Below, piece after piece: positions 877 through 2,190 of a stretch of 2,461 bases of DNA. Every line of letters starts with the position of its first letter. The first letter of the stretch is position 1. The notes beneath the pieces were generated by a model. The model did no database searches and had not been told where the DNA came from. It saw nothing but the letters and a program-made list of their open reading frames with translations. Where the stretch lies: the IMG/VR virus record IMGVR_UViG_2671180770_000028. One strand, 5' to 3'. Source of the DNA: a virus (lineage: Duplodnaviria; Heunggongvirae; Uroviricota; Caudoviricetes). The position numbers were made by a program, and so were the translations under genes.

Positions 877-1206
877 ATGGCAGTAAAGATTTCAGGTGTA
901 CTGAAAGACGGCACAGGAAAACCGGTAGAGAATTGCACCATTCAACTGAAAGCCAGACGGACCAGCAGCACGGTGGTGGTGAACACGGTGGCCTCTGAAA
1001 ATCCGGATGAAGCCGGTCGTTACAGCATGGACGTTGAGTACGGGCAGTACAGCGTTATTCTGTTGGTGGAAGGATTCCCGCCATCCCATGCCGGGACCAT
1101 CACCGTGTATGAAGATTCTCAACCGGGGACGCTGAATGATTTTCTCGGTGCCATGTCGGAGGATGACGTCCGGCCGGAGGCACTGCGTCGTTTTGAACAA
1201 ATGGTG
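877..1206 (+). other. Conserved N-terminal tail-attachment region of the side tail fiber (lambda Stf-like, about 110 aa)
   Basis: Residues 1 to about 110 (MAVKISGVLKDG...GRYSMDVEYGQYSVIL...GFPPSHAGTITVYEDSQPGTLNDFL...) track the lambda Stf N-terminus closely from memory. Similarity falls away once the Ala-rich stalk begins. Confidence 0.7.
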
Positions 1207-2190
1207 GAAGAGGCAGCGCGTCATGCCGGGGAGGCGAAGAAGAATGCCGGAGAGGCAGAGACGTCCGCGAGGAATGCCGGCATATCAGCCAGTCAGGCAG
1301 AAAAGAGCGCTGCACATGCTGACACTTCAGCAGGATATGCATCGGAGTCAGCCCGGCAGGCGGCAGAAAGTGCAGCCTCAGCAAAGCAGTCAGAGGAGGC
1401 GTCCTCGTCCTCGGCTTCTGCGGCCGCTCAAAAAGCCAGTGAGTCATCACAAAGTGCAGCAGAAGCTGAATTGTCAAGAAAGACGGCAGAAAGTGCAGCC
1501 GGTAATGCAGCCAGGGATGCAACGACCGCAACAGAAAAAGCCCGGGAGTCAGCAGAAAGCGCACAGTCAGCGGAACAAAGCAGGATAGCGGCGGAAGAAG
1601 CCGTAAACCGCATCCCCACCGTGGTGGGGCCTCCCGGGCCAAAGGGGGAACAGGGGCCCGCTGGCCCTCAGGGGCCGAAGGGAGATAAAGGAGAGCGTGG
1701 TGACACCGGCCCTGTCGGGGCAACCGGCGAACGGGGACCGGCAGGTGATGCTGGTCCGGCAGGCCCGCAGGGGCCGAAAGGTGACAGGGGAGAGCGGGGA
1801 GAGGCCGGTCTGACGGGAAATGCAGGTCCACAGGGTCCAAAGGGAGATACCGGTGCGGCAGGCCCGGCAGGCCCACGGGGACCGAAAGGAGAAACAGGTG
1901 CGGCTGGCCCGGTAGGGGCAACCGGACCTCAGGGGGCGAAGGGCGACCCGGGGGAGACGCAAATACGGTTCCGTATGGGGCCGGGAAACATTATTGAGAC
2001 AAACAGCAATGGCTGGTTCCCGGATACAGATGGCGCACTCATCACCGGACTGACCTTTCTTGACCCCAAAGATGCCACACGGGTTCAGGTTTTTTTTCAG
2101 CATTTGCAGGTCAGGTTTGGTGACGGGCCATGGCAGGATGTTAAGGGGCTGGATGAAGTGGGCAGTGATACAGGCAGAACAGGAGAATGA
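877..2190 (+). CDS. stf: Side tail fiber protein with a collagen-like triple-helix domain: lambda-Stf-like N-terminal region, Ala/Ser/Glu-rich stalk, 37 Gly-X-Y triplets and a short C-terminal globular domain (prophage-fiber C-terminal type)
   Basis: The ORF-track frame is 871..2190. I place the start at ATG 877 because the product then begins MAVKISGVLKDGTGKPVENCTIQLKARR..., which matches the lambda Stf N-terminus as I recall it (MAVKISGVLKDGTGKPV.NCTIQLKA...); GTG 871 would add two residues (MN). A purine-rich GGGG sits at 868-871. The stop is TGA at 2188-2190. The domain layout is read directly from the translation. Confidence 0.9.
   Translation: MAVKISGVLKDGTGKPVENCTIQLKARRTSSTVVVNTVASENPDEAGRYSMDVEYGQYSVILLVEGFPPSHAGTITVYEDSQPGTLNDFLGAMSEDDVRPEALRRFEQMVEEAARHAGEAKKNAGEAETSARNAGISASQAEKSAAHADTSAGYASESARQAAESAASAKQSEEASSSSASAAAQKASESSQSAAEAELSRKTAESAAGNAARDATTATEKARESAESAQSAEQSRIAAEEAVNRIPTVVGPPGPKGEQGPAGPQGPKGDKGERGDTGPVGATGERGPAGDAGPAGPQGPKGDRGERGEAGLTGNAGPQGPKGDTGAAGPAGPRGPKGETGAAGPVGATGPQGAKGDPGETQIRFRMGPGNIIETNSNGWFPDTDGALITGLTFLDPKDATRVQVFFQHLQVRFGDGPWQDVKGLDEVGSDTGRTGE
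1207..1626 (+). other. Low-complexity Ala/Ser/Glu-rich stalk of the fiber (probable alpha-helical or coiled-coil shaft), carrying internal in-frame DNA direct repeats
   Basis: The translation is dominated by A, S, E, Q and K with recurring AESA, SAAEAE and ARESAESAQSAEQS motifs. An exact 17-nt direct repeat CGGCAGAAAGTGCAGCC occurs at 1361-1377 and 1484-1500, both copies encoding A-E-S-A-A in frame. Confidence 0.65.
1627..1959 (+). repeat. Collagen-like repeat region: 37 consecutive uninterrupted Gly-X-Y triplets (111 aa) within the tail fiber CDS
   Basis: The translation GPPGPKGEQGPAGPQGPKGDKGERGDTGPVGATGERGPAGDAGPAGPQGPKGDRGERGEAGLTGNAGPQGPKGDTGAAGPAGPRGPKGETGAAGPVGATGPQGAKGDPGET has Gly at every third position with no break and is rich in Pro at X and in charged K/R/E/D residues. 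The DNA shows a strong 9-nt-scale GGN-CCN periodicity and raised GC content. Confidence 0.92.
1960..2187 (+). other. C-terminal globular domain of the fiber (about 76 aa; prophage tail-fiber C-terminal domain type; candidate distal receptor-binding or trimerisation cap)
   Basis: After the last Gly-X-Y triplet the sequence becomes non-repetitive and aromatic-containing (QIRFRMGPGNIIETNSNGWFPDTDGALITGLTFLDPKDATRVQVFFQHLQVRFGDGPWQDVKGLDEVGSDTGRTGE), consistent with a folded terminal module. The family assignment is from memory of E. coli prophage collagen-like fiber proteins and is not verified. Confidence 0.55.

Follow-up and report, generated by a model that had tools for sequence, protein, structure and literature searches.

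A predicted EPclA-type collagen tail fibre on a lambda-like anchor and the conserved paralogue of its tip domain encoded immediately downstream

The IMG/VR record IMGVR_UViG_2671180770_000028 belongs to a tailed virus of the Caudoviricetes, and the 2,461-bp stretch of it that was analysed here (the window) carries on its + strand an open reading frame (ORF) of 437 codons at positions 877 to 2190. Judged from its sequence, this ORF is a genuine gene for a side tail fibre of the published EPclA class, carried by a lambda-like prophage of the pool formed by enterohaemorrhagic Escherichia coli (EHEC) and Shiga toxin (Stx) phages. It is followed by a small ORF of 89 codons (2192-2461, + strand) whose product is, by alignment and profile matches, a paralogue of the fibre's own tip domain, namely a free-standing copy of it preceded by a 27-aa N-terminal extension. 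The joint reading in which this small ORF specifies a separately translated accessory protein of an EPclA-type fibre is considered probable.

The fibre as such is already known: its architecture has been published, both genes carry curated RefSeq family names and they are annotated in hundreds of genomes. The remaining point of interest is the conserved paralogue of the tip domain that lies beside such fibres in both long-tailed and short-tailed Stx phages. Such fibres belong to phages by which genes for Shiga toxin and type III effectors are carried from one E. coli strain to another, so that what the fibres bind and how they are constructed bears on the range of strains that can be converted.

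Architecture of the fibre

The fibre gene runs from the ATG at 877 to the TGA at 2188-2190 and its product shows the domain order PfN-PCoil-Col-PfC. Pfam assigns phage_tail_N (PF08400) to residues 1-133 (E 1.7e-69, model positions 1-133 of 134), then Collagen, and finally Phage_fiber_C (PF06820) to residues 363-426 (E 9.3e-34, full model, 1-64 of 64). The lambda-Stf-type segment at the N-terminus (residues 1-117; 877-1227, + strand) consists of a collar, residues 1-93, followed by a linker and the start of a coiled coil, and was delimited by identity to lambda Stf and to the PDB chain 9e7m_Ta. This chain, named 'Tail fiber protein' and part of the Ur-lambda tail, matches residues 1-93 of the fibre with an E value of 1.9e-51. 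In Ur-lambda, residues 1-91 of Stf were found to form a 12-copy collar at the gpV/gpM junction, with residues 92-101 as a linker and a coiled coil from residue 102 (PMC12617516).

The stalk that follows (PCoil, residues 118-250; 1228-1626, + strand) is rich in Ala, Ser and Glu (31%, 19% and 14%, respectively), and its 133 residues align without a gap to an O157 EPclA. The collagen triple-helix region (residues 251-361; 1627-1959, + strand) is recognised by Pfam and holds 37 uninterrupted Gly-X-Y triplets, as counted by a regular expression on the translation. The protein ends in the PfC knob (residues 363-426; 1963-2154, + strand) and an 11-aa tail, residues 427-437. The ratio of nonsynonymous to synonymous polymorphism (pN/pS) in this PfC is 0.22 among 61 distinct relatives. 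A Peptidase_S74 C-terminal domain was absent from the fibre in the Pfam scan.

Every feature by which EPclA is recognised at the sequence level is present, that is PfN, an Ala/Ser-rich PCoil, a single uninterrupted collagen domain and a C-terminal PfC. The fibre is 97% identical to the EPclA copy of O157:H7 TW14359, and EPclA copies were reported to be more than 90% identical among themselves (PMC3368898). The exact allele of the window was absent among about 15 billion catalogued proteins.

A mosaic of three parts

Over residues 1-93 the fibre is 92.5% identical to lambda Stf (orf-401), and over residues 1-117 it is 88% identical. Beyond about residue 153, nothing significant to lambda orf-401 was found, the similarity being compositional only, and lambda orf-314, which encodes the distal gp37-like rod and the C-terminal receptor-binding region, gave no alignment with E < 1. 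At the DNA level, a lambda-like patch extends from about 721 to 1200 with 85-95% identity inside and about 55-65% on both sides. The patch begins in the 3' end of the upstream lom gene and spans the intergenic terminator, while the body of lom and the end of the J gene are only about 55-68% identical to lambda.

A second junction was observed near codon 249. From there on, residues 249-437 (189 aa) share 94% identity with the fibre of podoviral phage AU6Stx1, which is of the 933W/phi24B type, whereas identity between the two proteins is only about 30% in their N-terminal ~120 residues. By these alignments the same collagen and PfC end sits on two different tail-attachment domains, which supports modular exchange. 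The gene is a three-part mosaic in which a lambda-type anchor is joined near codon 117 to the stalk and, from about codon 249, to a cassette made of collagen, PfC and the small ORF that also occurs on the unrelated anchor of the 933W-type short-tailed Stx phages. Exchange of fibre ends in this mosaic manner has long been familiar from tailed phages.

A first-pass annotation of the same DNA had described about the first 110 residues as a lambda Stf-type anchor and the rest of the protein as departing from lambda Stf, and had suggested exchange of the distal end. These three claims are borne out by the 92.5% and 88% identity of the anchor, by the lack of significant similarity past about residue 153 and of any orf-314 match, and by the presence of the 94% identical module on a 933W-type anchor. 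Mapped along the protein, identity to lambda Stf drops near residue 117, and similarity over the whole length was not seen.

Trimerisation without a lambda-type Tfa

Recombinant EPclA of the Sakai strain, produced on its own in a laboratory strain of E. coli, proved to be a soluble dumbbell-shaped trimer by analytical ultracentrifugation, size-exclusion chromatography with multi-angle laser light scattering (SEC-MALLS), circular dichroism and electron microscopy (EM), and its collagen part to be a true triple helix melting at 42 C (PMC3368898). In the same work, PfC was a trimer when produced alone or fused to thioredoxin, Col-PfC was also a trimer by SEC-MALLS and, after melting, the Col-PfC fragment refolded immediately (PMC3368898). 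Since it refolds at once, PfC can nucleate the collagen helix. The fibre of the window, in view of its 97% identity to an EPclA copy and of the more than 90% identity among copies, is likewise expected to form a homotrimer with a collagen helix.

On this basis a model can be proposed in which the N-terminal ~93 residues, as a lambda-Stf-type collar, would fix the fibre to the junction of tail tube and tip. The three chains would then run through an Ala/Ser-rich coiled coil and a 37-triplet collagen triple helix to end in a small beta-rich PfC knob, which would trimerise by itself and set the register of the collagen from the C-terminal end. Because self-trimerisation of PfC and its setting of the helix register were shown for the relative, no lambda-type Tfa should be needed for trimerisation. 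The suggestion of the first-pass annotation that the fibre may fold without a dedicated Tfa thus agrees with the behaviour of the related recombinant EPclA, and the expression experiment that it had proposed, whether the fibre trimerises alone, has a published answer for that relative, which is yes (PMC3368898).

Sequence and profile searches of the PDB for a relative of PfC returned chance-level matches only, and structure prediction of the C-terminal domain of the fibre likewise failed in the hands of the authors who studied phage phi24B (10.64898/2026.04.10.717836). The same cryo-EM work cast doubt on BamA as the ligand of PfC, a knob that hardly varies (10.64898/2026.04.10.717836). A separate observation concerns P0156, a distant 565-aa protein in which four tandem repeats of about 82 aa precede a collagen-like stretch of Gly-X-Y repeats. 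Each of the ~82-aa units is similar in its second half to the final 34 residues of PfC (VVVLDAD...ILxVRRADGTWxEIPxLKG; at most 50% identity, E 1e-7), and from this layout PfC-like units appear to be stackable along a fibre beside collagen.

The small ORF, a paralogue of the tip domain

The small ORF runs from the ATG at 2192 to the TAG at 2459-2461 and encodes 89 aa (9.9 kDa). Its residues 28-89 (nucleotides 2273-2458) match PF06820 with E 1e-34, which is the family of the fibre C-terminus, and the protein aligns to fibre residues 364-425 with 32% identity (E 9e-11). It also matches PHROG 576 over its full length (E 7e-60). The downstream gene had been called unrelated, a description contradicted by the shared PF06820 domain and the 32% identity to the PfC of the fibre. 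It had been proposed alongside that the fibre might use a different accessory protein, for which the small ORF is the obvious candidate, so that the proposal can be retained while the description of this ORF as unrelated cannot.

A Shine-Dalgarno (SD) sequence, AGGAG, is found 6 nt before the ATG of the small ORF (2181-2185, + strand), inside the last codons of the fibre gene. The junction, AGGAGAATGAC followed directly by ATG, which comprises the SD, the fibre stop, one base and the start, is alike in nearly all of 75 relatives, four of which have a single change in or just before the SD. In each of the 83 loci for which upstream sequence was available, a single base separates the fibre stop from the ATG of the small ORF. 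Among 58 distinct nucleotide versions its pN/pS is 0.13 overall, 0.055 in the PfC part and 0.27 in the 27-codon extension. The exact protein occurs on at least 999 contigs and bears the NCBI name 'phage tail fiber C-terminal domain-containing protein'.

Searches of phage records by tblastn returned 296 records for the fibre PfC and 296 for the small ORF, and the breakdown by organism is the same. The protein sequence of the small ORF is conserved at 90% identity or more in phage 434, lambda_2B8, the short-tailed 933W (L0122) and the long-tailed Stx phages. A profile search of 1.84 billion representatives gave only 83 proteins, mostly fragments, and the relatives come from E. coli, E. albertii and Citrobacter rodentium. 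Neither defence-system libraries, PADLOC among them, nor NCBIfam returned a match for the small ORF.

Phage Stx2-86 (L109, 7174-9816) offers an informative comparison. Its EPclD-type collagen fibre ends in a Peptidase_S74 intramolecular chaperone domain, not in PfC, and the gene after the fibre is a Gp38_N-type adhesin instead of the PfC ORF, followed by the exclusion gene cor. Since both the tip and the following gene are swapped, the partner gene is taken to be exchanged together with the tip.

The extension carries a Cys-Gly-Cys motif, LCGCGK (2225-2239, residues 12-16), that is kept even in C. rodentium, while the neighbouring residues vary. In a trimer this motif would gather six cysteines, much as in the cystine knots by which collagen chains are held together; this is noted as an observation only. 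A lipoprotein or secreted reading of the N-terminus, MNILKKLMQRLCGCG, was ruled out on inspection, there being no hydrophobic core and an atypical lipobox. In C. rodentium (L086-L089, 5479-6237) a degraded remnant lies beside nleG, with an internally deleted and frameshifted fibre (a PfN fragment and PfC) followed by the small PfC ORF. The latter has a 1-nt deletion in its first codons and a restart at the equivalent of Met8. Because this prophage remnant is degraded, the copy, taken as a diverged comparator, is uninformative on the junction between fibre and ORF.

Possible roles of the small ORF

In the reading considered probable here, the small ORF would be translated from its own SD and ATG, coupled to the fibre stop, and inherited strictly together with the fibre tip. 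Its product may recognise or mimic the PfC knob. Two roles can be proposed for it: it would help assembly or prevent aggregation, in the position taken elsewhere by Tfa, or it would be a minor, sub-stoichiometric subunit of the tip. A more specific version is held only tentatively: the product may represent an undescribed type of partner, in which a free-standing copy of the tip domain docks on, caps or transiently templates the PfC knob from the genomic place of Tfa, and thereby controls knob-knob aggregation and assembly or adds a second exchangeable knob to some fibres.

Proteomic data are available for phi24B, in which the counterpart of the small ORF is gp59. In virions purified on CsCl and sucrose, two gp59 peptides, ADGTWENIGGMK and VITQVVILDADKK, were detected with 3 peptide-spectrum matches (PSMs) each (10.64898/2026.04.10.717836). 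The fibre gave 38-47 PSMs per single C-terminal peptide and 2267 spectra as a whole (10.64898/2026.04.10.717836). The gp59 peptides therefore indicate that the product is synthesised and is recovered with purified virions, but in an amount of only a few percent of the fibre, which is more in keeping with a trace assembly factor or a minor component than with a stoichiometric tip.

Several points weigh against an accessory role. At about 7% of comparable fibre peptides, the gp59 count speaks against a stoichiometric tip subunit, and carry-over could also account for it. A chaperone role is not required for trimerisation, because recombinant EPclA trimerises without the small ORF. The co-occurrence of fibre and ORF could partly reflect tight linkage at a spacing of 1 nt and not function. 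No paper discussing the small ORF was found in the literature, nor an experiment on its product, and PDB searches returned no solved structure related to it. Finally, an AlphaFold2 model of the small ORF from an 11-sequence alignment reached a mean predicted local distance difference test score (pLDDT) of 52 and a predicted template modelling score (pTM) of 0.34, too poor for a fold search.

Other explanations of the small ORF

The fibre may need no accessory protein at all, the downstream ORF being unrelated or incidental, and this is in keeping with the trimerisation of recombinant EPclA alone (PMC3368898) and with the small ORF having no similarity to the Tfa family. This explanation is nevertheless judged unlikely, given that PF06820 is common to the ORF and the fibre tip, that in each relative examined only one base lies between the fibre stop and the ORF, that ORF and tip are each found in 296 phage records whose breakdown by organism is the same, and that in Stx2-86 ORF and tip are both replaced. 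A paralogue of the adjacent domain could also have arisen as a tandem duplication of the fibre 3' end that is now a decaying, functionless remnant, all the more as fibre genes in these prophages are often frameshifted, both in Table 2 of PMC3368898 and in the loci examined here. Yet the pN/pS of 0.13 overall and of 0.055 in the PfC part (58 distinct nucleotide sequences), the intact ORF with at least 90% protein identity in siphoviral and podoviral phages, the conserved SD and ATG and the peptides detected in phi24B make such decay extremely improbable. The small ORF further borders a region carrying effectors of the type III secretion system (T3SS), and it has relatives in E. coli, E. albertii and C. 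rodentium only, many attaching and effacing pathogens among them, from which one might take it for a moron, that is a lysogenic-conversion or exclusion gene acting in the host cell like the T3SS effectors found after it in relatives. Against this stand the absence of promoter-like sites in the window (0 found), translational coupling of the ORF to a late structural gene, its position before the terminator annotated in phage 434, the lack of a signal peptide-like hydrophobic stretch and of a PADLOC match, and the presence of the ORF in 933W-type phages, where it is not beside effector genes; a moron is thus regarded as very unlikely.

A different possibility is that the small ORF is joined to the fibre by programmed +1 frameshifting or slippage at the T tract at 2090-2097, which would give a minor long isoform with the second PfC as an alternative tip. 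In GenBank KU977420 (AU6Stx1) the ORF is named 'atfT, alternate tail fiber tip', and a slippery sequence with a pseudoknot is predicted for a +1 frameshift. The phi24B authors included 'Fusion_6159_FS1/FS2' in their proteomics database and used the label 'Spike or just gp59?' (10.64898/2026.04.10.717836). Moreover, the frame of the small ORF is +1 relative to the fibre and is open over 46 codons upstream of the ATG in nearly all relatives, every relative has UUU_C at codon 406 though the T run varies from 3 to 8, gp59 peptides at a few percent of the fibre level have the ratio typical of recoding products, and a G2T7 tract fuses both ORFs in the Stx2a phage records LC7278xx. On the other side, the 46-codon stretch has a pN/pS of 1.93 in the +1 frame and of 0.21 in the fibre frame over the same bases, and one relative with an intact fibre and ORF has a stop codon within it. 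The T run is not conserved either, being T3 in GGGGCTGTTT (26 loci) and GGGGATGTTT (4 loci) of about 85, and the RNA fold of 2086-2200 is no better than that of shuffled sequences (z -0.54). The small ORF has a conserved start of its own, AGGAG-N6-ATG, and purifying selection acts on its first 27 codons (pN/pS 0.27). Were a shift to occur at the T tract, the first PfC would lose its 31 C-terminal residues and with them its most conserved strand, and the stop-proximal GAA_UGA_C is, from a reading of the sequence, not slippery. In the phi24B data no junction peptide was found among the table rows examined (10.64898/2026.04.10.717836), and the sole gel band in which the fusion entry exceeds the fibre entry in spectra is at the low-mass end. 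The G2T7 tract is absent from IMG/VR, and of the three indels that distinguish L091 from the window two fall in T homopolymers. A frameshift fusion was thus not supported by the tests; it is weakly disfavoured and is considered improbable, and translation of the small ORF as a separate accessory protein is preferred.

Variation at the T tract

The T8 tract itself (2090-2097, + strand) lies in the PfC coding region at Val404-Phe-Phe, most relatives having GGGTTTTTTT or GGGGCTGTTT at this place, and is probably not a conserved slippery site. The window reads GGTTTTTTTT (Val404), compared with GGGTTTTTTT (Gly) in most relatives. In the LC7278xx records (for example L091, at about 5090) the tract is GGTTTTTTT, one base shorter, which places the fibre in frame with the small ORF and leads to a predicted fusion. 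Among IMG/VR contigs G2T7 occurs in 0 and the G2T8 of the window in 7. Because G2T7 is absent from IMG/VR and indels fall in T homopolymers, it may be a homopolymer base-calling error. Phase variation at the tract was also considered and rejected, G2T7 being confined to one GenBank batch (LC7278xx) and the other in-frame variants being simple substitutions.

The downstream region in relatives

The window stops with the final base of the small-ORF stop codon and includes nothing 3' of it, and the search for a tfa gene was made in relatives that are 96-97% identical, at 63 loci with at least 2 kb of downstream sequence and at ten further genomic places with 8 kb. An intact tfa was found in none of these 63 loci and ten 8-kb places. 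The small ORF itself gave no BLASTP alignment to lambda Tfa, and PF06820 was its sole Pfam match at E<=1. The earlier statement that no tfa-type gene lies downstream therefore holds for the small ORF itself, which is not Tfa-like, and, in relatives, for up to 8 kb downstream, where no intact tfa and only 3' fragments of it were found.

In about a dozen relatives all that is left of a lambda-type tfa is its 3' end (residues 108-193 or 144-191, with at most 92% identity), located 1.8-3.8 kb downstream of the small ORF, beyond effector genes. Such fragments are found in L005 (7786-8043), L073 (7347-7598) and L099 (11773-11916), and in L100, L107, L011, L043, L025, L093, L106, L050 and L061; fragments of the C-terminus of lambda Stf are found in two relatives, L065 and L084 (7831-8052). 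Together these fragments look like the right-hand scar left by the replacement of an ancestral stf-tfa module.

In the relatives, the region 3' of the small ORF holds type III effectors (NleG, NleH/OspG-like, NleC, EspM-like, EspN, SopA-like), insertion sequence (IS) elements and the end of the prophage. The phage structural genes end with the small ORF, after which this exchangeable effector region begins (L001, L003, L090, L099-L108). The same pair of fibre and small ORF, together with remnants of effector genes, is present in 434, a classical lambdoid phage of the laboratory.

Neighbouring genes in the window

The J end, lom, the 437-codon ORF and the 89-codon ORF are all collinear on the + strand. 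Positions 1-144 hold the last 47 codons of a central tail fibre gene of the lambda J type (Pfam Ig_GpJ_C, E 3.5e-10), and gpJ is annotated here in relatives. A terminator-like hairpin with a T run was found by pattern scan between J and lom (163-190, + strand), and a terminator is annotated at the same position in phage 434. The lom gene (212-811, + strand) encodes an Ail/Lom outer membrane beta-barrel (Pfam Ail_Lom, E 1.7e-117, full length). A second hairpin and T run of this kind, found by the same scan, lies between lom and the fibre gene (838-866, + strand), where a terminator is again annotated in phage 434. Flanked in this way by two terminator-like hairpins, lom shows the usual layout of a moron inserted in a late operon. 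A simple scan found no sigma-70-like promoter in the whole window.

Over its whole length the window shares 96-97% identity with prophages of O145 and O157 E. coli and with long-tailed Stx2a phages, and the best match in the databases is 97%, with no identical record. Similar DNA is present in 4835 of 5426 complete E. coli genomes, at up to 16 places per genome.

Comparison with known systems

The closest described fibre is EPclA, the EHEC prophage collagen-like protein A, for example ECs2717 of O157:H7 Sakai (PMC3368898), with which the window shares the PfN-PCoil-Col-PfC order, the length of 437 aa, the position after J and lom, and lengths of PCoil (116 aa) and collagen (111 aa) that equal those in Table 2 of that paper. 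The allele of the window differs by about 13 substitutions, one of which, Val404, creates the T8 tract. The paper on EPclA makes no mention of a downstream PfC ORF (PMC3368898).

With the Stf/Tfa system of lambda (Ur-lambda) the fibre shares its location behind J and lom, the collar and linker, the first part of the coiled coil and a trimeric Ala/Ser-rich proximal stalk. It differs in that the gp37-like rod, the OmpC-binding C-terminus and the Tfa of lambda are replaced here by collagen, PfC and a PfC paralogue. The pair formed by gp61 (EPclB) and gp59 in phi24B, to which L0122 of 933W corresponds, resembles the window in its distal part, with collagen and PfC 94% identical, the small ORF 93% identical and the same arrangement of stop and start. 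However, the anchor of gp61 is about 30% identical and binds a podoviral adaptor ring, and the protein is longer (631-645 aa), with two collagen segments and a Pf2 repeat.

PfC can be likened to the C-terminal trimerisation or nucleation domains of collagens (NC1, C-propeptide), T4 fibritin (foldon) and Scl2 (V domain), being itself a small non-collagenous domain that forms trimers unaided and renucleates the neighbouring triple helix (PMC3368898), but no sequence or structure relation between them is detectable. The Tfa proteins of lambda, Mu and P2 and the T2/S16-type Gp38 (for instance gp22 of Stx2-86) are, like the small ORF, encoded by a small gene directly after the fibre that is exchanged with the distal end, and their product is likewise expected to sit at the tip or to act on it. 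Neither Tfa (PF02413) nor Gp38 is related to the small ORF in sequence, and the partner is a paralogue of the fibre's own tip domain here but in neither of those systems.

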